From a virus: a DNA stretch of 64,000 bases. The translations under genes and the position numbers were made by a program. The notes beneath the pieces are model-generated. The model did no database searches, had not been told where the DNA came from, and saw only the letters and a program-made list of their open reading frames with translations. Below are positions 23,548 through 47,601 of this stretch, piece after piece. Each line of letters begins with the position of its first letter. Position 1 is the first letter of the stretch. The stretch covers positions 1-64,000 of the IMG/VR virus record IMGVR_UViG_3300008110_000181, one strand, 5' to 3'.

Positions 23548-26500
23548 TTATCGAATTGCTAATGTTCTTAAACTCTTAATTCTAGGTGCTCTAGATTGAT
23601 CTGTACCAGACATAACTATTTTAATTGTGTATCCAACAAAAAGATCCAGATTGTCTGCAGTAAATTCATATTCCAAGAATTCATTATCTAAACTTGGTTG
23701 TACATATCTATCTGGTCTGCCCGTATTCTTAGAAGAGTCGAGAACGAGGAATCCTTGATCCGATACAGATCTTAGATTATCATATCCAGGGAATAGTTCA
23801 AAAGTTTGAGGAATACCATCAGAATCTGCTCTGATCAAACTGTAAAGAACTCTAAAATCAGCTGATGCATGTCTATATGCACTTAAAATCACTTTCAATG
23901 TTGTTGCTGGTTGTGCTAGATTAACAGTATTTGATACATAAACTGCAGCATGAGGGTCATTATTGATTGAATTAACCCTATTGTCTGTTACATAATTTGT
24001 AATCGGTACGTTTAATCTACTACATCTAAACTCTGTAATTGCATTATCTAGATAAATTATTGGAGATAAATTAGAATTTTGTGTATTTAAAGTTATACCC
24101 GTTACAAAAGATTTGTTTCTCAATAGTTTAGCTAAACCGGGTTGATTTTTCTCATTAATCTCTGAAGCCACTATTCTCATTGATCCTAACGTATTGACAG
24201 CATTTAGTTGAACCGGTTCGGAAACTTGCTCAACGAATGCATTTTCTGTTCCATTTGCACTTCTACCACTTACAGTTCTAATGAAAGCATTTACAGATGT
24301 GTCAGCTCCTGGTGTCAATAGATCATATGATGGAACCAGACTACTATAATTAATATTTTCAGATGCTTCTACTTTTGATCCACCATAAGAAGATTCATCA
24401 ATAAATGACAACTCTGGAGCAGATGTTGTTGAACCGTCAGAAGATCTATTAGCACCATTTCCAGTTCTAGAAACTTCTATATGGTAGTTATCAATTCCAA
24501 TTCCAGTTAAACTCATATCATGATCTTTATTGATTCTTCGTAAAGATACTCCATTTAGTTCGTATTTGTAAACTAAACTATCTTTATCATGTAAGGTAAT
24601 TAAAGATTGATCAATACCTCTTCCACTTGGTGAATTTGAAATAGTCAAGGATCCATTTCCAACTGCAGAATAACCTATAATCTCCTGACCAACCAAGATA
24701 TAACCAGTATTTCCTGCTCCAACAGGAATACCTTCAAAGGTAGTAAATATCGATGTGTTTGCAACACTGACAGTATTACTTTCACTAATAGAAAGTTCCG
24801 CACTTAATGAAGTTGGTGAGTAACTAGATTCTACGTTTGCAATTCTAACTTTATCAATACCAGAATACATTCCATGATCAAAATGTTCTAGTCTAAAGTA
24901 ATTGCCAGAATTAACACCACCATCAGGGACAAAACTTCTTATAGTTGTTGTTGCTAGTGAAACTATGGTTGAGGACGGGAAGTTATCTGGATAGAAACTT
25001 ACTCCAGCACCAACTCCAAAAGAACTAGACTCTCCTTGTATACCAGATAGGTATAAAGTATCCACTCCAGAGATGGATGAAATTGATACTCTTGCATCTC
25101 TACCCAAAGTCGTTACAATACCAACAACATCACCTATCTTGTAACCAGTACCTGTTGCGGTAGTTGCTGCAATACCCGTAATTGCACCACTAGAGTTTGT
25201 TGTTACAGTGAGTTTTAGACCAGATCCACGACCGATAATATTAGTTGTATCTAAATTAATCAATGTTGAACTTGCTGGGTAATTTGTACCACCACTTGTA
25301 ATCACTGTTTGTGTTACTGAGCACCCAACTCCAACGATATAACCATAAGTATTCGGTTTTGTTCCTGAAATTTTTCTACCGACTTTTAAAATGTCATTGA
25401 CTAGAGTTGCGTTTGATGCCGTTAAAACAGTAGAAATTCCAAGAGTTGCAGTTTTTGGTAATGTTCTAATTGGATTATTATTTAACCTTGCAATATAACC
25501 ATTGCTCTGATTTAGAGGTGGAGTAGTAAAGAATGCGGTACCAGTTTCTGCTGTAAACTTAGCTTTATATAATTTAAACTTAAGATCTTGATATTGATTA
25601 GCAGTCCAAATAGATCCATTCTGTGATTTAAACAGACTTCCCATTGAGAACTGCTTAGAGTAGATTACAGATTCTGTAATTGGTAGTGATTGGGTTTTCT
25701 TGCTAGCTTCACCCATTGTTGCAATCCACATTTCATATTTGTCACTATGTGCAGATATAACTACAACCGCATATTCATTGTTGGGTGCCAAATAGATTGG
25801 TTCTGGGAAAGTTACCTTTGTTTCTATTTCACCATCATCTGAAATTAGAATATCAGATGGTCTTAAAGTTACTGATTTACCCAAAACAATTCTAGTTGGG
25901 GTACCTAAATCAACCGTTCTAATTTCAACTCTTACTGGAGCATTTCCATCATCTTTCTTAGCAAAGAACAATCCAACAGAAGTTAAAAATGCACCATTGA
26001 TATCATCAATACTATCATTTTCTCCTGGTGCTTCTACACTTCCACCCACTGTAAATGATTGTGCTAATGGATCAAAGAATTGTGCAACAGTATTTTGGGT
26101 ATTTCTTGTAATTGTTGTTAGATTTGTAGTTAGACTTAGATTTAAGTTTGTAACAGTTTGAGTGGTTAAATTATTTGTAATAGCAGTTACTTCATTTTCC
26201 CATTGATTTAATGTACCATCAGAACTATATGCAACTTCTGCAAAAGAAATTGAATTACTTCCTGGGATTCCCAATTCATTAGTTGGGCTAGAAGTAAGTT
26301 TAAATGTTTTAGTTCCTGTTGGAATTCTTACTGTAGGAACTGGTGTACTATTTGGATCTCTCAAGAAGAAAGTACCGATTAAGTCACCATAGTTATCAGA
26401 TACTAATCTGAGATCTTTTACATATGCTATAGCACCACTAGTTTGACCAATCAATAACATACCTTTGGTTAAATAACCAGTATATCTTCCTTGTGCCTCT

Positions 26501-29500
26501 TCTGCCAATGAATTTGTATCTATATTCAATACTTTTGTTGTATTACTATATGATGTCTGTAAAGATTCTGTTTTAATATATGGATTAATATTGTATTTCT
26601 TTGATGGAGCATTAAAAGGACCATACTTATGATCAGGTGTTGCCAATCTAAATGAAATTAAATTAACACCATTGACAGATCCAACGACAGTTTCACCTGT
26701 TCTAAAGATACCGGTAGTTCCTGGTGTAGATAGTGTAGTATCTGTTGCAACTTCAATTAATTTTGGTGTAAAATCAACAGCACTATTGCTATCAAGGAAT
26801 TGGTAATATTGAGTTGATGGTTTTAAATTTGATACAGAAAATTCTGTATTTCTTGATCTCATGAAAGATTCATCTGATGAAGAAACTAAAACATTTCTAA
26901 TAGAAACATCAGTATTTGTTACTGTATCAAAAGTAACATTGGTAGATGAACTTGAACTATTAAATGACTGTGTATCTCTAGATTCTGAGACACTGCTTCC
27001 AATTACTGCACTACTTCCTGCTCTACGTGGGTTTGCTATTCGAACAACAGATGTGGATGAAGTTTCTCTGACAACTGGATTCGTAATGTCTTGTCTAAGA
27101 CTACCATTAAGATCCCTAGTAATAGTTCTACTGGAGTTATTTGTGATATTAATATTTCTATCTGGGAGCTGAATAGTTCTAACCCAGGTATCTACTGCTG
27201 GATTTAGATTAATAATACCGGTATAAACAACAACATTAAATGGATTTACATTCTCTACACCAGTTGCATATAATTGGGAAATCCAGTCAATTTCTTCATA
27301 TTTTAAAGTTACAGAATTGCCTGTTTTTTGAACATTTGCATCTAATAATTTAAAATCTTGTTGATAATCTAATGATTCATCGATGACATCAGTTGCTGGT
27401 AATACTCTGGATTTAATAGAATTTCTAGTAATTAATGGTATTAATTCTTTAGCAGATGGATTAACCTGTACATTTGATAATCCACGATTTATTAAACTAT
27501 TATTTCTAAAGTCATCAACGAAAAATCCACTCTTAAATCTATTTCTACCTTCACTATCTTGAACTTGAAGAGTTTGTGTTTGAACCTCTAAGAAAGATAG
27601 TGAAGTTACTCTTTCTAGATTTTGAACTCGGTTATCAATATAACCGATATCTCTCATGGTATATCTTCTATTATCTCTAAGTTGTATTACTGCATCTTGT
27701 GGATTAAACAAATATGGGGGCAACTGAATAGTTGCTATTTCCATCATAGCATCATTTTTTGTAGGAGCTTTTGGATTAATTGCAGATATCCCTTTTTCTA
27801 ATATAAAGTTTCCAGATTTATCTAAGTATAATCTATCAATTCTTGGAAGGTAAAAATCATAAGATACTGAGAATGATTCATTTGGTGTCAATAATAATTT
27901 TGGATCGGTATTAAAATTTCTGGATGAGAAATCAAATGGTGATGCTGAAGTTGTAGATGGATTAAAAGTTGAAACCCTAGGTCTAAAATCTAATATATCT
28001 GATGCTCTAATACCAGAAACAATAGATGGGATATCTGTGGTATATCTGTCCTTATCATAACTTAATACCGTAAAGACGTCCCCATTATCGTTAGATTCTA
28101 CAGTATAGTAATCATATACAACTAAAAGTTTTTTAGATGGTTCAGGAACATCTTTGTTTCTAACTATCTTAGAATAATCATAATATTCTTCTTTTTGACC
28201 CTTATCTAGAGTATATGATGATGTAATATCTTTACATTTACCCAAAGTTACTAACTCAACCTGAGTTTTAATATTCGATTCTTCAAATGTTACTTCTTCA
28301 CCAATTACAAATCTATCACTAGTTAAGTAAATAACTTCTAAAGTATTTGTTGGATTAGATACTTTTTCGACAACTCTTGCGACTGTTTTAGAAGATCCAC
28401 CAAGTATTAATTCTCCAACTATTGCATTATTTGTAACATTTGCAGTTGATGTAAATAAAATTCTATCTAAAGATGGAGATGATGAATCGTATGATTCAAA
28501 TACTCCCATAATTTTTACAACATCTGGTTTTAGTAACGATATTTCTTCATCTTGAACTCTTAAACCATAATATGGACTATATGTTAAACCATCGGAGATT
28601 GAGGTATTGATACCAGTTCCAGACTGTTGGAATTCTGATCTAGTTATTTCTAATTTTTCACTTCTTACATATTTTTTAATTTTATTCTTTACTCCAGACT
28701 TAACTAATGTTACATTTATTGTTGCTGAACCATTAGTCAAATTTCTAATCGTTAAAGTGTTATTTGTTACATCAACAGAATCACTAGATAGTGGTGCTAT
28801 AGTACCATTAGCATAAACTACTGAATATCTTTCTTGGTCGAATGAATCAAAAAATGCGGAAGTAATCCCTAAAGTCGAAGATACTGTAGATGCATTTAAA
28901 ACTATTTGGTTACTGGCAATAGTTTGATTTATTAACTGAGCAGAAATTTTTAGTGAGGATCCTGTAAGACCTACACTTGCAATATTTTTATGCGGTAATA
29001 TGCTGTAGAGATAAGAATCGGATGGATTTCTTATAATCGTTGCAGATGGGAATGCATCAACTTGTATAGTACTCGTTGGTAAATTACCTTCAAAAACACC
29101 AGAAACTGATGGACTTATTGCAGAAAGTTGGAATGATGAACCATCTGAGGAAACTGCTGAAATTCTATTATAGGTTTCTGTAGAAAATCCTGGTTTTTGA
29201 TATCTAACAATGGTACCGGTTCTAACATTAAAGAACTTTCCTGGACAAGTTACAGTTGATATACCTCCTTGTGCTGTAGATATGGAGACATTTGTAATTC
29301 CACCAAAAAATCTAAATCTCTCTAATACTGCATCGGCAGTAAATGTTGGAATACCAACAGCACCAAATACATCTTGCTTGAATGATTTTATGCTTTGAGT
29401 ATTGTATACTGTAGCAGAATTGATTGTTCTTGGAAAATCAACACCATTTACAATAATTGATTCACCGACCATGAAACTTCCAGAAGTCTGTCTAACATCA

Positions 29501-30993
29501 ATCGTATCGGAACCTGCAGCTGCAGATACAACATAACCATTTGCACCACTACTTTTTCCTTTGATATATGAAGATGCTGGTATTTCTGTTGAACTCGCAG
29601 ATCTATTTAATACTAATCTTGTATTGGTTTGTATATCGTATAAGTATAAATCATGATTTGTAGCTGCGTTAGAATATGCAGAGTCTGTTAAATTGAATGC
29701 ATATACTCTTGCGCTACCAATTCCAACTCCACCTGCAGCAAATTCGTCATATAATGTTACAACTCCTTTTGTTTGTGGAGTACCTTTAACATTATTAACT
29801 CTTATCAAATTCCCCATCTCAAAGGAAATACCAACATTAGATTGTGATTGAGTATCTCTTGGTTTTTCTACGTCTAAAATTGTTGATGAAACTTTTTCAA
29901 TATCATAACCTCTAACGTATGCTTTTCCCGGAGATACTTTTACACACATCAGATCGTTTGATGGTTTTGATCCTCCAGGGGTAGTTTCATTTGAGAAAAA
30001 TAACCCATTTCCACCTAATCTATCGTTGAGTGAATTGTGAATTGATGGGTTAAATGGATCAACTGCATAATCACCAGACTCTTCGTAAGTTCTTTGTGCA
30101 AGATAATCTCTAAATTTATCATTGGTGGATTTATTTTCTATCTTTTTAATTTTACCACCATCAATTCTCAATAATTCAATAAAATTACTGTCATTAAAAT
30201 CTGTTAATAATTTTTTATCTAACGTTAATTTAATTTGTAATCTATCTGCACCAGGTGCGGCATAGTTTTCAAATCCTTTTGCATTATCATAAATTGACTT
30301 ATCATCCTTTGGTGTAATAATAACTTCATCAATAGTCAAACCAACACGATAATTTGGTGTATTGCTATAATAATCTAGCATCAATATTTGTTTGGGGACA
30401 TTTACAAAATATCCTCTTACAAAATATACACCATTATTAATAAAAGCTGCTGAACCAATTGACGTGGCATTAAAAGAAATCAATGATGCAAAAGAAGAAC
30501 CAGCATTAATCGTGGTTCCTCCGTATGTAATATTCTCATTGATTGTCAGATCTTCACCATCACTAAACTGTCTAAAAATAAAATCATTATCAGAATCTAA
30601 GTATTTTACATAAATTGTTGGATCTAATACTGTATTACCATTAGGAATTTCTACATGTTGTATAGTTGCAGTTATTCCAGAAACAGAACCAGTAATTTTT
30701 TTACCAACTAAATCTTCTAGATATAAAGTAATGTCTGTTCCAGCATTTGTTTGATTTAACTTTACTGCATAGAACTGACCGTCATATATTAAATTTCCGG
30801 GGATAACTACAGATCCCTCTTTAAACATATGACTACCAAATGTTTCTATTTGGTTTTGTAATAAAGATTGTATAGACGTTAATTCTCTGGCTTGAACTGG
30901 CCTTCCTGGATTAAATAAAATCTTATAAAAATTTTTATCAGAACTGAAATCGTCGTAATATGGACTAATATTTAAATTTGTTTTTTGTGCCAT
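23548..30993 (-). CDS. Large virion structural protein (VrlC/DUF4815-like), 2481 aa
   Basis: PYYDDF...GRPVQARELT, APGADR, RRYTMRDIG, GFFVDDF, DPLAQSF. Confidence 0.85.
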   Translation of the reverse strand: MAQKTNLNISPYYDDFSSDKNFYKILFNPGRPVQARELTSIQSLLQNQIETFGSHMFKEGSVVIPGNLIYDGQFYAVKLNQTNAGTDITLYLEDLVGKKITGSVSGITATIQHVEIPNGNTVLDPTIYVKYLDSDNDFIFRQFSDGEDLTINENITYGGTTINAGSSFASLISFNATSIGSAAFINNGVYFVRGYFVNVPKQILMLDYYSNTPNYRVGLTIDEVIITPKDDKSIYDNAKGFENYAAPGADRLQIKLTLDKKLLTDFNDSNFIELLRIDGGKIKKIENKSTNDKFRDYLAQRTYEESGDYAVDPFNPSIHNSLNDRLGGNGLFFSNETTPGGSKPSNDLMCVKVSPGKAYVRGYDIEKVSSTILDVEKPRDTQSQSNVGISFEMGNLIRVNNVKGTPQTKGVVTLYDEFAAGGVGIGSARVYAFNLTDSAYSNAATNHDLYLYDIQTNTRLVLNRSASSTEIPASSYIKGKSSGANGYVVSAAAGSDTIDVRQTSGSFMVGESIIVNGVDFPRTINSATVYNTQSIKSFKQDVFGAVGIPTFTADAVLERFRFFGGITNVSISTAQGGISTVTCPGKFFNVRTGTIVRYQKPGFSTETYNRISAVSSDGSSFQLSAISPSVSGVFEGNLPTSTIQVDAFPSATIIRNPSDSYLYSILPHKNIASVGLTGSSLKISAQLINQTIASNQIVLNASTVSSTLGITSAFFDSFDQERYSVVYANGTIAPLSSDSVDVTNNTLTIRNLTNGSATINVTLVKSGVKNKIKKYVRSEKLEITRSEFQQSGTGINTSISDGLTYSPYYGLRVQDEEISLLKPDVVKIMGVFESYDSSSPSLDRILFTSTANVTNNAIVGELILGGSSKTVARVVEKVSNPTNTLEVIYLTSDRFVIGEEVTFEESNIKTQVELVTLGKCKDITSSYTLDKGQKEEYYDYSKIVRNKDVPEPSKKLLVVYDYYTVESNDNGDVFTVLSYDKDRYTTDIPSIVSGIRASDILDFRPRVSTFNPSTTSASPFDFSSRNFNTDPKLLLTPNESFSVSYDFYLPRIDRLYLDKSGNFILEKGISAINPKAPTKNDAMMEIATIQLPPYLFNPQDAVIQLRDNRRYTMRDIGYIDNRVQNLERVTSLSFLEVQTQTLQVQDSEGRNRFKSGFFVDDFRNNSLINRGLSNVQVNPSAKELIPLITRNSIKSRVLPATDVIDESLDYQQDFKLLDANVQKTGNSVTLKYEEIDWISQLYATGVENVNPFNVVVYTGIINLNPAVDTWVRTIQLPDRNINITNNSSRTITRDLNGSLRQDITNPVVRETSSTSVVRIANPRRAGSSAVIGSSVSESRDTQSFNSSSSSTNVTFDTVTNTDVSIRNVLVSSSDESFMRSRNTEFSVSNLKPSTQYYQFLDSNSAVDFTPKLIEVATDTTLSTPGTTGIFRTGETVVGSVNGVNLISFRLATPDHKYGPFNAPSKKYNINPYIKTESLQTSYSNTTKVLNIDTNSLAEEAQGRYTGYLTKGMLLIGQTSGAIAYVKDLRLVSDNYGDLIGTFFLRDPNSTPVPTVRIPTGTKTFKLTSSPTNELGIPGSNSISFAEVAYSSDGTLNQWENEVTAITNNLTTQTVTNLNLSLTTNLTTITRNTQNTVAQFFDPLAQSFTVGGSVEAPGENDSIDDINGAFLTSVGLFFAKKDDGNAPVRVEIRTVDLGTPTRIVLGKSVTLRPSDILISDDGEIETKVTFPEPIYLAPNNEYAVVVISAHSDKYEMWIATMGEASKKTQSLPITESVIYSKQFSMGSLFKSQNGSIWTANQYQDLKFKLYKAKFTAETGTAFFTTPPLNQSNGYIARLNNNPIRTLPKTATLGISTVLTASNATLVNDILKVGRKISGTKPNTYGYIVGVGCSVTQTVITSGGTNYPASSTLINLDTTNIIGRGSGLKLTVTTNSSGAITGIAATTATGTGYKIGDVVGIVTTLGRDARVSISSISGVDTLYLSGIQGESSSFGVGAGVSFYPDNFPSSTIVSLATTTIRSFVPDGGVNSGNYFRLEHFDHGMYSGIDKVRIANVESSYSPTSLSAELSISESNTVSVANTSIFTTFEGIPVGAGNTGYILVGQEIIGYSAVGNGSLTISNSPSGRGIDQSLITLHDKDSLVYKYELNGVSLRRINKDHDMSLTGIGIDNYHIEVSRTGNGANRSSDGSTTSAPELSFIDESSYGGSKVEASENINYSSLVPSYDLLTPGADTSVNAFIRTVSGRSANGTENAFVEQVSEPVQLNAVNTLGSMRIVASEINEKNQPGLAKLLRNKSFVTGITLNTQNSNLSPIIYLDNAITEFRCSRLNVPITNYVTDNRVNSINNDPHAAVYVSNTVNLAQPATTLKVILSAYRHASADFRVLYSLIRADSDGIPQTFELFPGYDNLRSVSDQGFLVLDSSKNTGRPDRYVQPSLDNEFLEYEFTADNLDLFVGYTIKIVMSGTDQSRAPRIKSLRTLAIR

Positions 30994-30998
30994 TTTGC

Positions 30999-32561
30999 TT
31001 AAAATTCCAGAATAATTTTAACGTCTTCTTTTTGTCTAAGATTTCTTGCCACCAGAGGTCTATTATCGATGTAAATAACATCTCCTGACTTTTTATTTAT
31101 CTCTGGTTCTGCAAGTCCATTTGTAAATAATACTCCTAGATCTATTACTTTATTTCCTACTGTAACTTTATTATCATTAAATGAAGTATTGATTGGTGCA
31201 TTAAAACCAGATGTTATAAAAAAGATATTGTTTGCGGATGATTCAAATTCGTTAATTTTTGATTTTGTCGTAATATTCGAATTATCAGTCTCATTAGACT
31301 TATTTGGATAATATAATGATCTATCTCTGAAATACTTTAGAACTAATGTATCACTATCATATGATGCTACATATCCTCTAGCAATTGTTCCATCAGATCT
31401 AGTTTGATTTATTTCTTCACCAATTACTGGTTTTTGACCAATAGAATTTAATTTTATTGAATACAATCCAGAAAAAGCATTTTCATCAAAAATAGTACTA
31501 GATGCACCATATTTTGGATTTTTTAAAATACCAATTTGAGCAAACTTAGTGTCAATCGGAACATCTTTCGTTGAATCATCAAATCTTGCATAAATCAAAA
31601 CTCTATCAGCACCCAATTCTCTATAAACATCATATCCATGACCGTTAGAGGGTGGAATGATGGGTATTAATTTTGCATTTTGTGATAAAGTTCCTGTTCT
31701 TAGAGCACCCAGATCAACAATACCGTAAGTATAACCCTTCCCGCCTGCAGTAACAACGGCAGATTTAATTGAACTATTTTCTACCGTAACTAGTACCGTT
31801 GCTCCAGACCCATCACCATTAATTGAACAAGTATATGTACCATTAACATATCCATCACCAGCAGTATCAATATAAACTTTCTTGATTTGATTTTCTTCTA
31901 TTTCAGAATTGCCAGCATTTCGAATTCTTTGAATTTCACTATCAGTGTCAGTTTCCCAATTGTTAGGTAAGATTATATATTCTGTAGAATCAAACTTGAT
32001 AATGTCTGACGGAGAAACTGTAAATAAGTATTTCCAAACATAACCATCATTACTTGATCCAGCAGCAGAAGGTTCCGCATCAATAAATGATGGTTCATCT
32101 TGTGACTTATTTCCTAGTAAATTAGTACCAGAAGAACCATTATCAATGCAAATATAAACTCTATAGTTGCTGTTAATTACATAAAAATCCGAATCAAATA
32201 ATCTTGGTAGGTTGGAGTTAGGGGTTAAATTTGTAATACTATAATCATGACGATACATATCATATCTTGTATTAGAAGTCCAATTGACTTTTCTAACTAC
32301 TCTTCTAACATTTGCTGGTGTAATTTTTTTACCAAATAAAAGAGTATCTCTATAATGTGAAAGATACTGTAAATTGTCAGTTGGTGATGGTGGGTTTGAA
32401 TCCCATGTTGTTTCCGTACCTACAGTACCACTTGTTCTACTAAAACCACCATCATTAGGATTTGCTAATCCCAAAAAAACATAGTAGGAGTTAGTATTAA
32501 CAGAATCAACAAAATTTCCTGCATTAAATATTCTAAATTGATCTGTTATTATAGATGCCAT
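30999..32561 (-). CDS. gp8: Baseplate wedge subunit
   Basis: IITDQFRI, RVYICIDN, DGYVWKYLF, QKEDVKIILEF. Confidence 0.92.
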   Translation of the reverse strand: MASIITDQFRIFNAGNFVDSVNTNSYYVFLGLANPNDGGFSRTSGTVGTETTWDSNPPSPTDNLQYLSHYRDTLLFGKKITPANVRRVVRKVNWTSNTRYDMYRHDYSITNLTPNSNLPRLFDSDFYVINSNYRVYICIDNGSSGTNLLGNKSQDEPSFIDAEPSAAGSSNDGYVWKYLFTVSPSDIIKFDSTEYIILPNNWETDTDSEIQRIRNAGNSEIEENQIKKVYIDTAGDGYVNGTYTCSINGDGSGATVLVTVENSSIKSAVVTAGGKGYTYGIVDLGALRTGTLSQNAKLIPIIPPSNGHGYDVYRELGADRVLIYARFDDSTKDVPIDTKFAQIGILKNPKYGASSTIFDENAFSGLYSIKLNSIGQKPVIGEEINQTRSDGTIARGYVASYDSDTLVLKYFRDRSLYYPNKSNETDNSNITTKSKINEFESSANNIFFITSGFNAPINTSFNDNKVTVGNKVIDLGVLFTNGLAEPEINKKSGDVIYIDNRPLVARNLRQKEDVKIILEF

Positions 32562-32609: not shown

Positions 32610-35600
32610 TTATGTCAGTTGTTTTGGTAAAGCACCAGTATCATAAACCAATTTCAATCCAATAGATCTTCTTTGTACCGTTGGATATGTTGTCAATCCA
32701 ACATCAACTGTATTTGTTGTAACAGCAATTGAAACTGGATTAGTTCCTCTGGTAAATCCAGATAATCTTCCCCATGAAAATTTGCCAACTGGTCTTAATT
32801 CAGTTCCTGATGTAGAAAGACCTGCTATATTAGCATTAGAGTGTACGTTACATGTTATAATTCCAGCATTATCATCACCCACAACCCCAGACCAAGCACT
32901 TACATGATAAACACAATCTAGATAACTAGTTCCAATACCAACAACATTAGTATTAGAACTATTTGTGGCAGTTATACCATTACCAATTCTTGTATCATAT
33001 ATGTAAATTGGATATCCAGTAGATAGACCTGCTGTAACAAAAGTATCTGAATCTAAGTTATTAACAAAGAATTTTAATGCTTTTGAAGTTCCTATTCCGG
33101 TTGTAGTTCCTATGCCCGTAATTACTCCGCAGAATCCATTAACCGTAGTCACTGACTTAAGAGTTTCAATCAATCTTGGACCAGTGGTTGATAATCCTAC
33201 CGTGCTAGAACTTCCAACAATTAAGAGATCAAATGATTTTGCAGCAATTTGATTGTTATAGTTAAAGAAAGTTGCATTATCTACAAATATTTCTGTACTT
33301 GATGTTGTTATACCCGATATGACCTTTGCAGTTGGATAAACTTGTCCTTCAATAGAGTCTCTGGTTTTATATACTGTTTGTCCAAATACAATTCTATCTC
33401 TCTTTTGTTTGGTCCAGTTAATTGGTTTTGAATTAATTTCATCAATACCAGATCCACTGTACAAATCCGTTTCAATTCTATCAGCAAATTCTATATTTTG
33501 TACAAGTCTTTCGTTTTGCGTAATTGTATTTGGATATGCATTATTTTTGATTATTTGTACAGTATCACCTATTTTAATTGTTTGTGGAATATCAGAATTT
33601 AGCACACTATCTGAACCAATAGTCCCTCTATAGAAGAAAATTGCGATATTATCTTCTGGTTTTGGTGCGCTAGTGAATACAAATGTAGTGCCACCATTAA
33701 AATCATATGATTTGCCTGGTTCTTGTAAAATTCCATTAACAAAAATTACAAGCAAATTCTTCATATCCAGATCATAATTTTTATCTTTTTCAAAACTTAA
33801 TAACTGACCATTGTAATATAATGGGAAAGCAAGTCTAAATCCATCTTGATATGCAGCAATAGAATCAATGTAATCCAGATTACCAAATTGCCATAGTGCA
33901 AAAGAATCTGTAAATGTATCTAAAACAGTTAATTCAAAATTAGATAATGGTTCACTCAGTCTTGCATCAGTTACAAGTCCAACAGGTCTGATTACATCAC
34001 CCCTCTTAAATGAGTATCCAGGTCTTGTGATAGTGAAATTTTTGATACTAAACAAAGATCCTGGTGCAACAGTTTTAGTTGCAGGTACTGTTGCAGTTGC
34101 ACCATATGAAATTACATTTGCAATAGTTCCTGTAACAATACCAACATAAGATCCAATTGCTGATGCAACGTTTGCACACTCACCACTAAATGTGTACACC
34201 CCTGGTAATTGGGATACATCTCCAATAATAGTATTGTCAATTACTTGCACTTCAGTCGTATATCCACCTGTATCGACGACTTCATTTCTCATTACCTGAA
34301 TTGCAATATCTCTTGCTTGGTTAAATGCAAATATTGACTGCTGCTCTTCACCAGCCAGTAATGTTTGATTTGTTTTGTATATATTTGCTGCTTCCCAAAC
34401 TTGATCATTTCCACCAAATCTTAAATTGTATAAAACTGTTTCTAGAACAGCTTTGATGTCATCTGTACACTCTTTATTACCACCTGGTACTGTAAAACCA
34501 GGATAGTTTGCTAACATTCTACCGACCGCAATATCAGCAATAAACTGTAAGTTTCTAGAAATTAAATTAGCAGCATCATAGAATCTACCTCCAGCATAAT
34601 ATGGATTACTATCAACATCCAAACTTAGTACCAATCCAACTCCTGTTTGTGTTGTAGATCCTATACCAATACGGGAAACTCCTTGTACAGGTAGATTTGC
34701 GTAAGATGGGTCTGGAAGGAACACTTCACATGGTGTAATAGTGCTATAACCACTTCCACCAGTGTTAACTGTAAAGGAGAGAGTTCCACCAGCACCTACA
34801 TTGGCAGTTATAGATGCTATTGTACCACTATGACCAGATTGTGTTATGGCAACAGATACAGGTCCTCTATATCCAGAACCAATATTTAAATTATACCAAG
34901 GGAATACTGTACCAAAACCAATATATGTATGCGGTAATGTACTTGTCCCAACTTTTGCAGTAAACGTAGTACTTGATGCGACACTGACAATTGGGAAAAA
35001 TGTCTCCAATCTAGATACGGTATCTCTTGGGAAAAATGACGTAACCCCAGCATTAGATGGGCAAGTAAAACCTAAACCAACCAGTCTTACCAAATCACTT
35101 TCAGATAATCTATGTGGTTGTGTCGTTGTTATTTCAATTATTCCAGAGAAATTGTTATAACTTGCAGTGCTTACAGATACTGCAGTTCCGGTATATGATG
35201 TCCCAACAACAGAAGTAATTGTACCTGCAGCACTAACAATTGGTTTTACTATTGCCCCAACTAATGGTGCATAACCAATCCCAAGTGTTGAACCTATAGA
35301 GACTATTAAACCACCTCTAGGTCTGTCATTTTGATTAATATCATATTCAGATACAATATCAACTTCTGCACCACCTCCTGGTCTAATGCCTGAGAACACA
35401 ACACTCGTTATTCCAGCATTTTCTCTAAGTGCAAAATTATTTTTAGGGTTATTACTTGTTGTAGGAGTTTGGAATATGCCGTTGATTAATAGCAATCCAT
35501 TTCCACCACTTGTTCCTAGACCTACTGTATTTGCACTGCCAACTGTCAATGTAAATGTTCTACCGATTCCATTGAATTTTGTTGAAATATCATCATAAAT

Positions 35601-38600
35601 GATATTTGTAGTATAATCATTTCTTAAGAAAACTCTTCCTGTAAAATCAGACTTAATTGAATCTAAATTACTTTGATCTTTTTCTTCTTGAACATTGCCC
35701 TTTGGTGGGTCAGCAAAATATAAAATATTTTGGACAATGTTAAAAGCACCAACATTTACAGATACTTGGGCACCTGCAGAGTGTGAGGTTGAGGCAGTTC
35801 CTAAGTAACCTCTCGTTACTGTTACTAATGGATAAGTGCCAATTCCATTTACGGGACCAGTTGATGTTGTTCCAAATCCAACACTAATTACACCCATATA
35901 TTCATTATCAACTTTTATAATATCTTTAGGTACAATGGTGCTAATTCCAGTAACTTGGAAAGACGATTGACCAGCACCTATAGTGTTATTCAACTGATAA
36001 TATATTTGCTTAGGGAATATTGGATATTGAATTACATCGTCTATTGTTATTACACATTTTTCATTTTTCTTCTTCATTTCTAAAACATGTGCGTTACCTT
36101 CACCAGCAGATGTAAACGTAACGGCTGTTCCAGTTTTTGTGGTTGAAATTTGGAAAGAATCTTCCGTTTTATTAACAACATAAACTGTTGATGGTAAGAT
36201 CCCTGTAGCAATACCAGATTTATATGTTAATGCAACTGTTCCAATACCTATTATTGTTGATTTAGGTGTGTAAATTAACTCTTCATCTTCACTAAAGAAA
36301 TGCTTTGATGATTTAAATGTCCCAGTGGTTAAATCTAAATCGTCAGGGTCACTTGTATCAAATTCTCTAGCAAAAATTGGTAATTCATCAGAGAACATTA
36401 CAAAATCTGTTTTATTGATTCTTCCACCATTAAATGAGTTATAAAACTTGACAATTACGGAATCTCTTGTGAATGTTAATCCATTACTGTCTTTATAATT
36501 TAATGGTGGTGCAATATTAATTGCATCAGTAATAGTATACAACAATTTATTAAAACTTGATAATTTAACAGTTCCTGATAGATTGTTATCTGGATAGAAT
36601 GTCAAAATAACATTTCCACCGGAAATATTCCCACCAAAAGTACCTAACCCAAGTCTAGTATCATTTGTTGAAATACCACTAACTGATAAAAATGGTAGTT
36701 GTTTTACATATACTGAAGAACCATCATGAATTGTTAAAACTTGATGAACTGCTTTAGTAGAACCAATACTTACTTCTACTAGAGATTTGCTCGAATTAAA
36801 TAAGGTGTAATTGTATGAAGATACTACTAATGGATTAGTGGTTAATCCCGATGTAGCATATGAGTCGTATATTGCACTTCTCTCTGAACCATTTGGAGTT
36901 CCAGATGTTTTAAACCTATATGTCGAAATACCAATTGTTGTAGTTCCAAAACCAACAATATTTGCCTTAACTGAAACATTATTTTGGGAAGTTAGATTTT
37001 CAAAATCTAATGATAAGACATTAGAACTTAAATTGGCTGCAAATGATCCAATAAATCCAGCAGTATATCCATTTTCATCTGCACCAAAGTCATCAAAGTA
37101 AAATTCAGAAATAAAAGTATCACTATTATCATGAGTCACATATAACTCAGAATATTGCATCTTGTTACTAACAGTATCGGTTATATGTACAGATGCATGG
37201 AGAGATTTAAATACTGACGCATCTACAGATAAAATATTGGTTGTAAGACCAACTGTAGTGCTTAATCCAGATGTACTTTTTATGGAGTTAAATTTTGTAA
37301 TAAATCCTATCGAAGTTGATGCCACTCCAATTGCATTAGTTTGGAACGACTTTTGTATAAATTTAATATCATAATCCGTATTTGCAAAATCTACAGGTGC
37401 AAATCTTAAATTGACTTCAGTATTTTTTGTTTCTAAAGAAAACTCACCAATCTTTTCTCCAGCATATTCTGTAGATCCAATTCCTGCAGTGACAATTGTG
37501 CCTTTCTCTAGTAAGAAAGCATCAGATCCATTATTTACAACAACTAAATCTGTCAATTGAACTTTAGAGCCATCACTAGTTGATATTTTTACAAGAGCAT
37601 CCAAGTACTGAATATTGGATGTAGATAAATTGATTATATCAAGATATTGATTTAAATTTGAATCTAAATTTGAAAACTGTTTATTGATATTATCAATTTT
37701 TAAAACTCTATTGGTTTTGTTGCTAATAAATGGAGTTAAAAGTTTACTATCAAATTTTATAAACTTTGAATAACCATTAAATGAACCAATATCTTTTACA
37801 AGATCAAAACCATAAACAGTTTCAGTTCTTTGCTCAGTAATAATATCTTTTATTGCAATGGTAGAGTCTTCACTAGTAAATGTGAAATTACGTGATGAAG
37901 TTATGCCAGTATCATTAAAGTTTTTTGTACCAATCGTATGCAAGAAATTATTTACAACTGTTTTAGATTGATCATATGTAATAGGGCTCTTAATTGTATA
38001 TGATAAATTTTGATAATAATCATTATCAGGAACAACTTGTATGTCATTATTTAATTTACCGATATTATTTGCCCATCCAGTATTTGTTTTTGTTGCATAA
38101 TCTATCTCAAATTGTCCAAAATTCTCTCTAATTTCAGAGATAGTTACAATAGTTCCAGATTGTTTCCCAGTAATTTTTTCTCCAACATTTAATTCATATG
38201 AACCAAAAACTTTTATGTATGAATTATTAAAAGAAGTTACTTTTAAATCTCTCTCTATTCCATTTGAGAACACTTTTTCATTTAAAGCAAATCCCAATTT
38301 CTCCTTAGTTAATTCAAATTCTGGATAGATTTTTCTATTAACTATTACTGGAACAAAATCCTGAATTGTTTTTGGCGTCCCAACATCATCTGTTAATGCT
38401 GATGCGTCTACTCTTATTCTTGCTAATAAACCTGTAGTATTAAAATCAATTACCTTAAAGAACTTATAACCATAATTTTCAGAATTAAATCCGTTACCAG
38501 AAAGACTGGTATTTTTCTGAATACCTTCGATAAAGACTTCATCTCCAGGAGCAAAGGGTGCAGTCACAAATCCATCGGTTGGTTGTGAAATATAAACATC

Positions 38601-41600
38601 AAAAATTACCGAAGAATAATATTCAATCTTTTGAATACTGAATCCATTTGTGTTATTTGTTGCTGCTAATTTTATTTCTGTATCTACAAGACCTTTTGGT
38701 TTTTGAATAATAGCAACTGAAGATACTGAACTACCAGATAATCTAGCTTCTAAAATTCCTGTATCTAATTTTTGACCCGTTAGAACATCAACTATTACTA
38801 TACTTGGTGCATTAGTATAATTTGAACCACCTTTTAGAACAGAAATATCTTTAATTGTATTTGCATCTTTAATGAATATTTGTGGTGAAATATACGCAGA
38901 TGGTTTTAACGTAATATCAGATTGATATGAAAAACCTTCATTAATTATATTAACTTCCTTTATGTCACCAATTGTTTTTGAATCTAAAATAATATTTGCA
39001 TCAATACCATCATCTGTTACAATTTCATTTAAAACTGGAACTGTATTATAATCTGATTTTGATGATGTTATCTCAATCTGATGAATTGGTCCCTTAGTAG
39101 TCTTAGATGAAGTGACATATTCTAAACTTTGACACTCTGTACTAGCATAAGATAGTCTCTCCGGTAATCTCTTTAAGAAAATATTGAAGGTTGTGGATGC
39201 TACCCCTACCACAGTATATGTGTCACTTTCTATGAATAGACTATCTTCATAAGAAATTGATGAATTTTGCTTAACATCAAAGTCTGAATTTATAACTTTA
39301 CCATCTTTTTCTAAACCATAATATAATCTTTGTGGAATCTGATCATCAAAAATAATTTTTAAAGATGCATTTGTACTAATTCCAGGATTTCCTACCCTGT
39401 AACTATTAAACGAACTAGTAGAAGCTGTTGAAACAAATTCATGTATAAATGATTTGTCAAAATAAACTTTAAAATCATAACCAGAGAGAGAAGGATCTAA
39501 TAGATCAAAATTGATAGAATTATTTTTAGTTACTTTTATTTCTGGGTTAATCAATCCAACTGATTGACCCTCCATACCACTAAACCCAATACTGACAGTA
39601 TTTGGTGGATCAACGGTGCAATCTTTGTAGGTTAATGCCAGTTGAATATTATCTTTATCAACTCTAACAATATAATATTCACCATCATCTAATGGTTGTA
39701 ATAAATTGTTACTGTTACTTGTATATAATACTTTGTCTCCAGTTTTAAATCTATGATTTATTAGTCTAATAGTACCTCTTAAAGAAGATGGGTTATATAC
39801 TCCAGGTTTACCTAGTCCATCTGTATTTGTAAATCTCTTAAGAAGTTCTCCATCAATTGAGGCATCTACTATTCCACTATTATTAATATCATAAGTTGTG
39901 CTGCCAATGCCAACATTAGAAGTTAAAGAGTTTATATAAGACCTTATTGATGTTGCCGTTCTTCTTGTGGCATTTCCTGGGAATATCACATCTTTAATCA
40001 GAGCATCTCCAGTAAATCCAACTCCAATCATTTCTCTAGTAGCCACTAGAGCATCGTTGTAACTTACTACACCATCACCATCTAAGTCAAATTTTGAGTA
40101 ATTACTCCAAATAAAATCGTAAACATCTTGCCCACTTCTATTGCCAGTAGTTCCAAGTCCCACCGTAAATCCTAACCCCACCAATACTCCGATTGATGGT
40201 TGTTGAGTGGGTTTTGTATAATAAAAATTTGAAACTGTTATAGATGTAGAACCAAATCCAACAGGATCTAAAACAAGTTTTTGATAGTCTTCATTAAAAG
40301 AAACCCTAACAGATGTAGATTCTCCAGTTCCAATAGGACCTGGAGGTACTAATCCAATACCAACATTGAGATTTGGTTTAACATTTAATTTTACAGTATC
40401 ACCACTAATTAATCCATGAGAACTTGCGACAGAAACTGTTGTTTTAAATCTTGTTAAAGAACCCGTAATTTGATTAAAAGTACTTTCTAGCAAATAACGA
40501 TCATCATCATTTCCATTTGTATGGAAGAACAATTCTGGGGCATCAAAAGATGTTTTTAATCCAATACTATTGATTGTTTTATTAACAATGTAAAAATCTT
40601 GATATTGCCCGTTAATCGGTATACTAAATGTGGATGAACCGTTTGTTGAAACTGATATTGTACCAGAGGGTGGAGTAAATCTTACCTTTTGATTAGTTAT
40701 GAATGGATGATTTTCTAAGTAGATTGTCCTTGTTGGAATATCTCTAGATACTGTAAAATCAGCAAAATTAAATGATACTGACGTTCCATCTCCAGATCCA
40801 GTCCCAACACCGATAGATTCTCTAGGATTAAAATAAACTCTGTCATTCAATTTAGAATCAACATTATCTCCTAGATTTTTATCAATAGTAAATGAATTTG
40901 GTAGAAGTGAAATTTGTGCTTGGGCACTATGAGCAACTCCAACAGTATCTCTGTAAACTCGAATTATATTTTTTATTCTGAATAGATTTAAAACTTTTAC
41001 AACTTCTGTGCCAATTCCAATACTACTTCCTGCTGAAATTGTAGATGGTATTTGAGAAACATAAATTTCAGTTGAACCAATTGATACATTTGCAGGTATA
41101 TTCTTAGTTAAAGTTGTAGTTATAGAAGATACACCAATTTGATAAATTCCATCTAATTTTGTAAAAATAGTTGAAAAACCAGTTAATGAAATAAATTCAT
41201 TATTAAGTAAATCATGTGATGGCAATATAGAAAGTTGCAACTTTTCTGGATTAATCTGAGTAAGAATTACGTTATTGTAAACATCTTGGTTGCAAACAAT
41301 ATTTGTAACATCTTTACCTTTTAATGAAGATACTTTTGCTGATAAATCTTCTCCATCATCAGATTTAAATCTTAATATATCATTAATTTTATAATTATCC
41401 CCATCATTTACAATCTCATATGAATCTACATTTCCAGTGGAAACAGATTGTACTTTAACAACCTGATTTTTTAAATCCGAAAAACTTGAAAGAAAATCAT
41501 TTTCAACGTTTGGATCAATTAGTTTATATGGGTAAGTATTCCTTAAAACTCCAGATGTTGAAAAATCAAATAATTTTTGATTTAAGTATAAATTATCTTC

Positions 41601-44600
41601 AATCACATTTGATTTAAAAGCATCACCAATATAATATGGGAATTGAGGTTGGAAGCTAATATTATTGATTGGTGCAAAATAAGCATAAACACCAAGTGGA
41701 AATTCTGGTGTTTTGCAGAATCTTCCATTATTTTCATCAAGATCACCATTTTCCGTATATTTGTAATCCTCAACAAAAAATCCAGACACAAATCCAGAAG
41801 GACGATCAGTATAAGTAATGTCTAATTGATATCCAGATACAAGAGATTTTGGAGCAGAATTTACGTTCTGTGGATTGGTGTATCCATATGCACCATAAAT
41901 TGGATTGCCATCATATGCCCATCCGATAATTTTAGAGTGATTAGCACCGTTATCACTAAATGCATCTTGCAATTGCTTATTGTATGCAATAGATGCATAC
42001 TTTAAATCATTTTCTAGGGTTTCAGAAATAAATTCACTACCAAACCTAGATACATTATTTAAAGTTAAAGATCTAACTTCAGAATTAAAGAATCCATTTG
42101 AACCTGCAGAAACAACAGAAATTTTAGAAGTCGATGAATAACCTATACCAGAATTTATAACTTTAACTGACTTTATTCTTCCATTTTCTATAATTGGTAA
42201 AAATTCAGCTCCACTTCCCTTACCACTTGGATCTGTAACTACAATATCTGGTGTAGAATAATATTCTAATCCACCATATTCAATTTTTACGGTATTAATT
42301 CTTCCTTCACTAATATTTGGAGTAACTTTTGCATCTTTACCATTCTTAATTGTTATGATTGGTTTTTTCTCAAAATTTAATATTGTAGATCCATATCCAG
42401 TTCCAGATTCATATAGATATGCATCTATAATTTTTCCTCTAACTGATGGTGTTATATTTAAAACTTTTGTTGGTTGAACTGTAGATGCAATGCCTACAGA
42501 AGTGAACTCAACCGAAACCAAAATTGAGGGATAACTAAAATATTGATAACCAGAACCTTTTGATTTAAATTTAACATAATTTTTTCTTTCATAATTGGTT
42601 GCAACTGTTCCATTTATTCCAGCATCACAAATCCTAAATGAATTGTCATCTATTTTTAGAATATAAAACTGATTAGAAGTATCTGTTGAGACTCCAACTA
42701 TTGGACTTGTCTGATAATTATATACTACCAAATCACCATCATTAAATCCATGATTTGTGAAATTAACAGTATTACTTGATGTGGATATCCCCGATGGTTT
42801 TACAATCAACTTTCTATTAGTATAACCTTCTCCACCATCAATTATTTTAATTTCTGTTAAGGTTTTTTTATTTGATTTTGTATAAAACTTATGAACACCA
42901 AAATTATTATCAGTGTTAAACTTTATAGTATTAATACCAGTAGAGTAATCCTTTAGACTTGGATATAGTAATACTGTTCTTGGACTTGTGCTTTTTGGAT
43001 AATATGAAGAACTATCAATCAGAGTTGAAGTTCCTATTCCAACACCAATTCCTTTATTACCATTTGCATTATAGAAGATTTCTTCACCATCTGCAAAGAA
43101 ATGGTCTGTATCAAACGTTAGTTGCCCTGTAGTGGTGTTTATACCACCACCTGTAGTAGTTGCTCTACCATCAAAAAGAACTTCTCTAAGTCTTAGATTC
43201 AAGATAGGTTCTAAAACTGCCCCACGACCATTACCACCATTTACCCCAATAGAAACAATCCTATCAATGTCAAAATCTTGTGGATCAACGTATACTTTTT
43301 TAATTAAACCACTGATTACGGGTTGAATGAGTGCAGTAGTTCCAATACCAGCAGAGACAGAAATTTTTGGTAAATTGATAACATCATAATCTCTTCCACT
43401 GTTAATCACAGAAATTGACTTTAATGGTCCATAATAAATCTTATCCTGAGATTTATAACTATCAATTTCAACACCATTAACTAGCATTCCAACTGGACCT
43501 GGTAAAATTACTTTACTCTTATCATCAGTAACATTTGGATTAAAGTTAAGTGGGAACTTTTTCAGTAATTTTTGTGGTCCAATTACTCCAGATTTTTGCG
43601 ATGCAAGTGTAAAAGTATGTGTTCCTATTCCAGAATTATATGGAGATCTAAAAAGAACATAATTTGAACTTCCAATAAAAGATGAAGATGCATATAATCT
43701 TATTTTCTTTGCATCTGGAGACACCATTTCTACAAAATAAAATCCAGTATCTAATCCAACAAGAGTATCTGTGTTTGGTTTATAAAAAATTCTATCTCCA
43801 GTAATGAAAGTAATTGGATTTTCAAATGCTATTACACTATAATTAATATCAATTAAAGTTTCTAAAGCACCACTAGTATTATTAATTGTATAACTATCTA
43901 ACTTTTTAGTTATCTGATAATTATATGGAATACTAAATCCTCTATTACTAGATGGTAAAGAATTTGATGCAACGTATCCATAGTTTGTATCTGTATATAA
44001 GTTACTAATGTCAGATATTAAAGTATCGTTACCAAATTTTATAGGAGCATAAACACTACTTGCTTTATTAAGTTTTCTTCTTAAATCATATAATACACCA
44101 GATACGGGTGTAAAGTTTCCTAAAATCTTAATAGAAGTTGTATTTTCACCAATTTTCTCGTCAATATAAGAAGTAAATACGACGTTGTTTGTACCTCTTT
44201 GAACAATTTCTACTTGATCACCATGTTTAAAACTAGTTTGATCATCTTTTAAAATTGGTGACTTTAAATTTAATGATTTTGGACCATTGAAATTATCAAT
44301 ATGAAATCTTGAGTTTGCATTATATAACCAAGAATTTACAAAAACTTCTTTGAACGATTTATTAGAAAATCTAGTTTTTATAATTGGGTTGCCTAGACTT
44401 TTAATATTAATAGAATCTCCTTCTGCAACACCATTAAGATATTCCGAAATTTGTTCAAATTTTGCTAAAGACCCTAAAATGCTAAAAGTAACCTTCTTTG
44501 TTAGATCCCCATTTTCATACCCAAAATATATTTGATCATTACGAATATCTGCGGCAAATGGAATAGCAGTTTCTATACCAGAACAACCGAAAAATTGATT

Positions 44601-45669: not shown

Positions 45670-47601
45670 TTACTTTCTTATAAGATTTCCGTTAAGGTAA
45701 CTAGATGTATAATAATTTTTAGTAAATTCTGATCCAGATACTTCTTCACCAGAAGATATTACATCCTTTATCATATTTATTTCACTTTTTGAAATACTGA
45801 AATTTAAATATAATTCTTTTAATCCAACCACATCATTTGATTCTGGTATTGCCTGAACTTCGATAATGTTATTTTCTTTTACCGTAGAAGTAATGTTTAT
45901 ATTATTAATGAGGATTTCTCCCTTTTCATAATCAATTGTTCCAGCAGATTTTAAAACAACTCTCGTCTCTGTCTCACTGATGGGTTTAACTATTGATAAA
46001 AATCCTGTTTTTCCATCATCACTTGGAATATCTGTAAAGTACACAGTATCAGATTCACCAAATATTGTAAAACCAGTTGATTTAATATTATATCCTTTCT
46101 TGCTGATATGAAACTTATTACCAAAGCAAAGTTCATATTGTGCATATTGATTTATATAAGCTGGTAAATCTCTTCTAATTCTAACTTTTGTGATATTTGA
46201 GGTGATTGAAAAATCAGTATTGTCTATAATTTGTAAAACTTTACTATACTTGAATCTCCCACCAAATTTATTAAGATCTAAAGAGTTTGCATATTTGTTC
46301 AGAGAATTTACAACTTTATTCTTTAAAAATTCTGCAGAAGAAATTTTTGAATAATCATAGTAAATACCAGCATCAATTTCAACATATAGAACTTTAAGGT
46401 CAACTATTTTTTGATTAATTCCAGAAACACTATATTTTCTTAAATTGTCTAATATATTTTTCTTATTAAAATCTGAAACAAATGTTCCATTTTTAGGCTT
46501 AATGCTAATCATCACCGTGCCATATTCTGGTGGATCTAATTCTTCACCACCAACAATACTGACAGATTCTGTATCTGGATAAACTCTTTTGATTATTGAT
46601 TCATAATCACTTGCGGTAACTGCTCTATTTTGTGATGCATAAATTCTTGGTGCAAAATATTTAATAGAATCAATTCTTTCAATGTCAGATCCATTTTGGG
46701 ATACTTGATTTGTCGTCACCGTAACGGGTGAATCTAGAACTAAAACATCATTATTATCATCTTCTAAAGAACCAGAAAATAAGAATCTTCCTACACCATT
46801 TCCCTTCTTACCTTCAGTGACAATATAATTTGCTGTTATAATATCTCCGTCTTGATTTGTACCATTTCCTAACTTTCTACCAATTAATCCATCACCAAAG
46901 AATATTTCATATTTTTCATCTTGAACTTCTTGAATCAAAAAGATTCTCGATGTTTCATCTAAATTTAAAATATTTTCTACTTGATTATATTTAAATCCTA
47001 GTTCTTCTGCATTCGATGCTTTTTTTACATAAACTCTAACTGTAGAAGTATCAATAAATGGGTTATCTAAAATAAATCTTTGGTCTAAGGACCCGTCATA
47101 CTTAAATTTACTTGTTAAAAATGTTCCTTGATATACTGTTATATTATTGAAACTTGCTATACCAGCAGAACTTACATTTACTGTGATATTTTCTGGTATT
47201 GAAAATACATGAGAAGTATTTTGTATATCACCTGTACAAACTAATCCTGCTTTTAATGTTAAAGTCTTAGTAGTTTGCTTACCATTACCATCTAATAACC
47301 CAGTTATGCTAAAAGATATTTGTGCTTTAGATGCTGTTGTTGAGTGAGGTATATATCCAACATTTCTTGCTAGTGAGACTACATTCTCTCTAAGAGTTGC
47401 AGAGTCTAAGAAAGACTCATTAACAACCATGTTTGTATTGAATGCTGTAATATATGTGTTATATGCTAAAGTATCAATCAGCACAGAAAAATTAGATCCT
47501 TCAAAGTCAAAATCCGTGAAGTCTGAATTTTCACGAATATAATCTTTTATAGAATCTCTGATTTGATCGAAATCTAAATTAGTAAATTTAGTAAAAGGCA
47601 T
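45670..47601 (-). CDS. gp6: Baseplate wedge subunit
   Basis: DFDFEGSNFSVLIDTLAYNT, SQNRAVTASDY. Confidence 0.95.
   Translation of the reverse strand: MPFTKFTNLDFDQIRDSIKDYIRENSDFTDFDFEGSNFSVLIDTLAYNTYITAFNTNMVVNESFLDSATLRENVVSLARNVGYIPHSTTASKAQISFSITGLLDGNGKQTTKTLTLKAGLVCTGDIQNTSHVFSIPENITVNVSSAGIASFNNITVYQGTFLTSKFKYDGSLDQRFILDNPFIDTSTVRVYVKKASNAEELGFKYNQVENILNLDETSRIFLIQEVQDEKYEIFFGDGLIGRKLGNGTNQDGDIITANYIVTEGKKGNGVGRFLFSGSLEDDNNDVLVLDSPVTVTTNQVSQNGSDIERIDSIKYFAPRIYASQNRAVTASDYESIIKRVYPDTESVSIVGGEELDPPEYGTVMISIKPKNGTFVSDFNKKNILDNLRKYSVSGINQKIVDLKVLYVEIDAGIYYDYSKISSAEFLKNKVVNSLNKYANSLDLNKFGGRFKYSKVLQIIDNTDFSITSNITKVRIRRDLPAYINQYAQYELCFGNKFHISKKGYNIKSTGFTIFGESDTVYFTDIPSDDGKTGFLSIVKPISETETRVVLKSAGTIDYEKGEILINNINITSTVKENNIIEVQAIPESNDVVGLKELYLNFSISKSEINMIKDVISSGEEVSGSEFTKNYYTSSYLNGNLIRK

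Follow-up and report, generated by a model that had tools for sequence, protein, structure and literature searches.

The window analysed here is a stretch of 64,000 nucleotides (positions 1 to 64,000 of the IMG/VR virus record IMGVR_UViG_3300008110_000181) and belongs to a viral record of 74.7 kb whose estimated completeness is 35%. On its minus strand, an open reading frame (ORF) at 32610–45668 encodes a giant baseplate wedge protein of 4352 residues (P0002), which carries near its C-terminus a domain with the predicted fold of a phycobiliprotein (PBP) β subunit (residues 3692–3853; 34110–34595, minus strand). Exactly one PBP-like copy is present in the window. The gene belongs to a minus-strand row in which it is flanked by a gp6-like baseplate wedge subunit gene (45670–47601, minus strand; phrog_219, E 1e-195) and a gp8-like one (30999–32561, minus strand; phrog_438, E 2.9e-157), and the first 1000 residues of its product match phrog_2885, ‘baseplate wedge subunit’, with an E value of 0. 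The protein is thus placed at the gp7 position of a marine, T4-like cyanomyovirus, and the gp7 label that a first-pass annotation had given it is borne out by the gp6–gp7–gp8 order and the PHROG annotation. The ORF, the quoted peptides and the two cysteine codons (34467–34469 and 34176–34178) of that annotation are all present as written. By gp6, the nearest isolates are S-SKS1 (65% identity, to its ‘baseplate wedge subunit’) and S-SRM01 (64.5%).

The single domain sequence scores 21.2 bits (E 3e-4) against Pfam PF00502, one bit short of the curated cut-off of 22.2, and a phmmer search of the PDB with the same sequence returned almost only PBP β chains (best E 0.004). Copies of the domain were gathered from 81 viral contigs and 56 of them were aligned (alignment A2). 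The resulting profile gave 160 matches in the PDB, of which the best 60 are all PBP chains, with a best E value of 7.7e-8; 22 of the 56 aligned copies match PF00502 independently. An AlphaFold2 model, calculated from the phage copies of A2 only, with neither templates nor cellular PBPs, has a predicted local distance difference test score of 93.8 and a predicted template-modelling (TM) score of 0.90; in it, seven helices (A, B, E, F′, F, G and H) are predicted, and positions 103–140 form a long loop. When the model was submitted to Foldseek the top matches were β-type chains only (probability 1.0, TM 0.73), all of them PBPs but 8u0f_C. VIA-align places model residues 1–159 on residues 31–184 of the C-phycoerythrin β chain (7ap5_BBB), with Z 18.0 and a root mean square deviation (rmsd) of 2.2 Å over 144 residues. 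The best 50 entries are all β-type chains (Z 15.9–18), 49 of them PBPs; the exception is again 8u0f_C, the β chain of a ‘bacterial fluorescent protein’, whose Z of 17.6 equals that of PBP β chains. Unrelated helical bundles reach a Z of about 13.

The Pfam score just below its cut-off would fit a chance likeness of a helical segment to PBPs without homology. Set against this are the profile matches, with the best 60 of 160 all PBP chains, the Z of 18.0 well above the level of unrelated bundles, an alignment that is colinear over the entire domain and the precomputed PF00502 matches borne by many relatives. We regard chance as next to impossible, and the profile E value, Foldseek and the Z score together rule it out. 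On sequence and model evidence, the window domain is a true PBP homologue of β type with the PBP fold. The colinear PBP likeness of the helical insert, first noticed by eye, therefore stands, and the Pfam/HMMER, AlphaFold and Foldseek searches suggested with it gave 21.2 bits against PF00502 and a PBP β fold at probability 1.0.

The globin-like arrangement of helices A to H is shared with the β subunits of cellular PBPs (CpeB, CpcB and the cryptophyte β chains; PF00502) at an rmsd of about 2 Å. Unlike these subunits, the domain begins at helix A (model residue 1 corresponds to chain residues 31–34), and the N-terminal X/Y helices are therefore absent; the preceding sequence is rich in Gly, Ser, Thr and Val and its composition is not helical-looking. 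The loop between the PGGN motif and the first cysteine is 7 residues shorter than in PBP β chains. Both features had been reported in the first-pass annotation and are upheld here. The long G–H loop (residues about 3794–3830; 34179–34289, minus strand), which coincides with the stretch without helix at model positions 103–140, finds its best match in phycoerythrin β. Cellular β subunits are free antenna proteins of 170 residues, whereas this domain is embedded in a baseplate protein of 4352 residues. Without X/Y helices no α–β heterodimer of the PBP kind would form, and assembly of the window domain into (αβ)3 discs or phycobilisome rods is unlikely given this lack and the fusion to the baseplate. 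Lacking the X/Y hairpin, the domain is not classed as an antenna subunit.

The residues that surround the pigments of PBP β subunits are largely kept. Profile alignment equates Cys3734 (34467–34469, minus strand) with Cys82/84, here in the motif C-T-D-D, and Asp3737 (34458–34460, minus strand) with Asp85/87 of the CxRD motif. The intervening position, equivalent to Arg84, is Asp in the window copy instead of the Arg that binds propionate in PBPs. Cys3831 (34176–34178, minus strand), immediately before helix H, is equivalent to β Cys153/155 in a second colinear stretch of the alignment and in the structural alignment. Asp3698 (34575–34577, minus strand) aligns with β Asp39, presumably the partner of the β-153 bilin in PBPs, so that both Cys and Asp of the second β-type site are present and colinear; this Asp is found in 143 of 146 close full-length copies and in 550 of 861 copies family-wide. 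Asn3731 (34476–34478, minus strand) lies in a PGGN that aligns with PGGN and corresponds to β Asn72, which in PBPs we take to be γ-N-methyl-Asn. The retention of two bilin-type cysteines and an Asp, as proposed at first pass, is confirmed by the alignments and by family conservation, and the Asp39 and Asn72 equivalents extend the residues listed then. The baseplate protein thus holds a genuine relative of the host's light-harvesting pigment proteins with the attachment residues kept.

The domain has many relatives. Among 5.8 billion proteins, 151 giant proteins were matched, many with precomputed PF00502 labels, and when 1.84 billion representatives were searched exhaustively, 424 proteins were found, in which as many as 28 stretches matched per protein. 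We collected 1776 unique domain copies in 266 proteins, with from 1 to about 30 copies per protein. The Cys82-type cysteine is kept in 824 of 861 copies (96%), the Asp85-type Asp in 847 of 861 (98%) and the Cys153-type cysteine in 589 of 810 (73%); the two cysteines and the Asp are thus conserved in homologous inserts, a point on which the initial proposal could have failed. All four site residues are kept in 285 of 445 full-length copies. The motif C-x-R-D occurs in 543 of 861 copies (63%) and C-x-D-D, as in the window, in 217 of 861. The Cys153-type cysteine and the Asp39-type residue are both present in 294 copies and both missing from 115, with 36 discordant, in raw counts. Coevolution of this pair was rejected as an argument: the pattern is clade-bound, with only 11 changes of the cysteine on the tree, too few independent pairs.

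Two kinds of copy can be told apart. Two-Cys copies, which include the window copy, are β-like, and a profile built mainly from them matches β chains first. A further 138 copies, with the consensus K-C-x-R-D-V-G-Y...GGN, have the Cys82-type cysteine without the second, and in 109 of them it is the only Cys. A profile of five one-Cys copies (alignment A3: L017:7241–7735, L052:11333–11830, L022:12167–12673, L018:11432–11971 and L019:3669–4208) matches PBP α chains only (36 of 36), without the 7-residue gap. Like CpcA and CpeA, which they match exclusively, these copies show an ungapped K-C-x-R-D-I-G-Y; unlike them, phage copies have no X/Y helices and lie inside fibre or baseplate proteins, and the window copy itself is β-type. 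At the sequence level, then, the two phage subfamilies mirror the two PBP subunits, which suggests either two separate captures, of α and of β, or an old divergence within phages. The α-type copies can form very long arrays. In P0136 (5984 residues), 34 listed α-type domain matches run along nearly the whole length (residues 310–5865), with Cys and Asp in all 34 and CxRD in 31.

An intradomain disulfide was considered as the main cause of cysteine conservation and rejected, given the 138 copies without a second Cys and the 109 with a single one. Since most α-like copies have only one Cys, no such bond can explain its conservation. In addition, the PBP topology sets one site at each end of the A/B helices, a separation that in PBPs exceeds 20 Å.

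Unlike cellular β subunits, the phage relatives occur as tandem and nested repeats. In 81 of the 266 proteins, copies are split or nested, with other copies or domains placed inside one copy, often in the G–H loop. In P0008 (residues 3674–4422), one copy is interrupted after its N-terminal part by a second copy, whole or partial, and resumes only then with its helix H and the Cys; such inserts sometimes span hundreds of residues before the C-terminal part of the first copy is reached. We note that the G–H loop of P0253 and P0261 (alignment A1, columns about 300–600) holds a repeated His-rich insertion, F-T-C-A-R-D-x-H-A-T-x-H-x-Y-P-R, which may be a metal-binding fibre repeat.

A tblastn search of 50,697 phage records matched 338, named as Synechococcus (270), Cyanophage (57), Prochlorococcus (10) and Marine (1) phages. 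The neighbouring gp6 is found in 2358 T4-like records, including phages of Escherichia (632), Klebsiella (302) and Salmonella (192). As all 338 domain records are cyanophage or ‘Marine’, set against 2358 records with gp6, the domain is cyanophage-specific among T4-like phages; no non-cyanophage T4-like record has a PBP-like match. Genes that carry the domain are annotated as baseplate wedge, short tail fibre, tail-fibre-like or virion structural protein, and α-type arrays (tblastn of P0133) likewise occur in cyanophage tail-fibre-like genes. The window domain is therefore a member of a large PBP-derived module family restricted to cyanophage baseplate and fibre proteins. The tail-fibre protein of P-SSM2 (NC_006883.2, 16002–17960) matches only the two ends of the α-type array protein P0133, from which the PBP-like repeats look like a cassette inserted in a shared fibre.

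Two cellular systems invite comparison. ApcE also has a PBP domain within a large multidomain protein, the core-membrane linker; the domain is interrupted by a loop and attaches bilin without a lyase. ApcE, which has Rep linker domains and still pairs with ApcB, is part of the cellular phycobilisome, whereas the phage domains lie in virion proteins and reach far higher copy number. The bilin biosynthesis-associated globins (BBAGs) are non-antenna PBP relatives that likewise attach bilin without a lyase (Rockwell et al. 2023, PMC10151467), and C-x-R-D is given there as the bilin attachment motif. BBAGs are free-standing bacterial proteins beside genes for haem oxygenase and bilin reductase (PMC10151467). 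The window domain differs in being fused within 4352 residues, in a record with no such genes, and the phage domains in general form part of structural proteins; in the panel described below their presence is not associated with that of haem oxygenase or bilin reductase.

The relation of the domain to phage bilin genes was studied in 24 complete isolate genomes, picked by known accession numbers and hence not a random sample, using the A2 profile and Pfam models for CpeT, bilin reductase, haem oxygenase and CpeS (PF09367). Domain and cpeT are both present in 14 (P-HM1, P-HM2, S-PM2, P-SSM4, Syn9, P-RSM4, Syn33, S-RSM4, S-SM1, Syn19, Syn1, S-SSM5, S-CREM1 and P-TIM40), and both absent from six (P-SSM2, S-SSM7, S-SM2, S-CRM01, S-SRM01 and S-TIM5). 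The domain occurs without cpeT in four (P-SSM7, S-SKS1, S-ShM2 and S-T4); no isolate has cpeT without the domain. cpeT is thus found in 14 of 18 carriers and in none of the six others (Fisher p 0.0016, uncorrected for phylogeny; p 0.0021 when P-HM1 and P-HM2, which are one species, are collapsed). Neither bilin reductase (6 of 18 carriers, 2 of 6 others) nor haem oxygenase (2 of 18, 2 of 6) is associated with the domain in these isolates, and P-SSM2 and S-SSM7 have matches to both enzymes yet no domain copy. CpeS, the S-type lyase, is found in none of the 24, which excludes it as a substitute in the four carriers without cpeT.

Gene order adds to the link with the lyase. A full-length, high-scoring cpeT is present only in S-PM2, S-RSM4 and Syn1 of the panel, and in all three it shares its strand with a giant multi-copy ‘short tail fiber’ gene, 0.5–1.5 kb upstream of which it lies; in S-PM2 this fibre gene stands between gp5 and gp12. 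The suggestion that the domain is the missing client of the phage bilin genes is thus supported for the lyase, by co-occurrence and synteny, and not for pebS/pcyA or ho1; the co-occurrence survey that had been proposed gave the same split. In S-PM2 the interval from cpeT to the fibre gene contains three small ORFs and a gene for a 2OG-Fe(II) oxygenase (NC_006820.1, 165307–165888; L095). RefSeq also places 16 tRNA features, under one locus tag, within the 11.3-kb ‘short tail fiber’ coding sequence of this phage (168556–173383), which looks like an annotation coordinate error.

Retention of the Cys82-type cysteine was compared between phages of different hosts, in a small sample of related phages. 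It is kept in 43 of 46 copies from Synechococcus phages, in all eight from P-HM1 and P-HM2, both of which carry ho1, bilin reductase and cpeT, and in 6 of 13 from Prochlorococcus phages without ho1. The host of P-HM1 and P-HM2 is the bilin-poor Prochlorococcus MED4. Within this small sample, retention of the cysteine tracks bilin supply, unlike what would be expected of a structural disulfide.

Light-dependent adsorption offers a further, anecdotal comparison among four phages. In darkness P-SSM2 adsorbs, whereas P-HM1 and P-HM2 fail to do so (Liu et al. 2019, PMC6628666); adsorption of S-PM2 needs light and not host photosynthesis, the cause being ascribed to host receptors and/or tail fibres (PMC6628666). 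The numbers of profile matches are 6 in P-HM1, 6 in P-HM2, 13 in S-PM2 and none in P-SSM2.

These findings lead us to propose that the domain is a putative bilin-binding module, with bilin covalently bound at one or both cysteines, which we judge to have slightly better than an even chance of being correct. In the infected cell, bilin would be held by a thioether bond at Cys3734 (the Cys82-type site, with Asp3737) and at Cys3831 (the Cys153-type site, with Asp3698). T-type lyases act at the Cys153 position (PMC10452541), and that site would be loaded by the phage CpeT where one is encoded and otherwise by the host enzyme; in the lineage of the window the T-type lyase would have to be the host's. 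For the Cys82-type site the candidates are a host S/U-type lyase and lyase-free attachment as in ApcE and the BBAG globins. The assembled baseplate would then be pigmented. That such a pigment makes adsorption or baseplate triggering light-responsive is speculative and rather unlikely; a speculative alternative to light gating is that it shields the virion from light damage. The complete scheme, in which bilins on PBP-derived arrays in baseplates and fibres, loaded by phage or host CpeT, act as a virion photoreceptor that gates adsorption, we would give only a minor chance.

A number of observations weigh against pigment binding. The window's record has no cpeT, cpeS, bilin reductase or ho1, nor does S-SKS1, its nearest isolate by gp6. 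The absence from the record says little, given its estimated completeness of only 35%; with no phage bilin gene in either, chromophorylation of the window copy would need host enzymes or no lyase at all. The cpeT association ignores shared ancestry, and after correction for the tree the association between Cys153-type and Asp39-type residues is not significant. Most of the remaining points bear on the main rival explanation, namely that the captured PBP fold is a pigment-free structural module, a rigid and insertion-tolerant helical spacer in baseplate and fibre proteins whose conserved cysteines form inter-domain or inter-subunit disulfides or bind metal in an oxidising sea. Tandem and nested copies, up to about 30 per protein, are typical of structural repeats. 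P-SSM4 (L115, 70000–77600) has three copies that cover the sites, with the Cys82-type cysteine in 0 of 3 and the Cys153-type in 0 of 3, although genes for a bilin reductase and for a short CpeT-like protein are present in this phage; as P-SSM4 keeps the domain without either Cys, the fold also has a structural role independent of pigment. Conservation of the window domain is slightly below that of the remaining protein (79% against 84.5% identity to P0025). The X/Y helices are gone, as is the Arg-rich B–E loop, since we take the 7-residue deletion to remove the β-subunit loop that bears Arg77/78, and C-T-D-D in the window copy retains the Cys and Asp of C-x-R-D without its Arg. We found no report of pigmented cyanomyovirus virions in the literature searched, and the family is absent from the working cyanomyoviruses P-SSM2, S-SSM7 and S-SM2, which makes it an accessory decoration.

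A spacer of this kind would nevertheless leave a good deal unexplained. The lone Cys-x-R-D with its Asp is kept in nearly every α-like copy, and a disulfide accounts for neither Arg nor Asp, nor for the Asp39-type residue found together with the second Cys. That the domain is confined to cyanophages, among 2358 T4-like records, would be unexpected for a generic spacer, as would co-occurrence and synteny with cpeT, and it is mainly phages of bilin-poor hosts that have lost the cysteine. We consider the pigment-free module a possible but doubtful explanation. Another reading is that the domain serves ligand binding or sensing without a covalently attached phycobilin, for instance through non-covalent biliverdin or haem, through a redox-active Cys or by contact with a ligand on the host surface. 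The globin/BBAG superfamily includes biliverdin binders without CXRD (PMC10151467). The missing Arg of the window copy would suit such a role, and the distal, C-terminal place of the domain in the baseplate protein makes receptor binding plausible. However, the conserved residues are specifically those of PBP thioether sites, the closest matches in sequence and structure are light-harvesting PBP α and β chains and not haem globins, and the gene with which the domain co-occurs encodes a bilin lyase; we think this reading very unlikely.

Literature searches found no paper that describes PBP-like domains in phage structural proteins, and automatic PF00502 labels are already attached to many proteins of the family in databases. 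In the part of the survey of PBP relatives by Rockwell et al. (2023, PMC10151467) used here, phages appear for PcyA/PcyX only and not for globins. Most T4-like cyanophages carry cpeT, including some on Prochlorococcus, and a virion-borne client for the lyase, if real, would explain this. Prochlorococcus has no phycobilisomes. A pigmented baseplate or fibre is also a candidate mechanism for the light-dependent, photosynthesis-independent adsorption of S-PM2, P-HM1 and P-HM2, so that a virion photoreceptor, if it exists, would account both for the retention of cpeT and for the light-only adsorption of some phages. Bilin-binding domains of this kind, if real, would make these particles, to our knowledge, the first virions known to contain a chromoprotein. 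Should bilin be bound, the family would be a new source of small, monomeric and possibly self-attaching biliprotein tags without X/Y helices; should nothing be bound, a host antenna protein would still have been captured and reused, in α-like and β-like forms, as a virion building block.

The likeness of the 4352-residue protein to T4 gp7 is one of position and label: the gene lies between gp6-like and gp8-like genes and has the PHROG label ‘baseplate wedge subunit’. It differs in being about four times longer than T4 gp7, which we take to have about 1030 residues, and in carrying YHYH and PBP-like modules. A second giant protein, of 2481 residues (23548–30993, minus strand), is encoded downstream of the gp8-like gene; it gives a full-length match to phrog_358 (function unknown) and contains no PBP-like copy. 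The YHYH domain of the 4352-residue protein (PF14240, E 5.9e-26) occupies residues 1239–1333 (41670–41954, minus strand), and residues 1858–1945 give weak matches to EF-hand and dockerin-like calcium sites.

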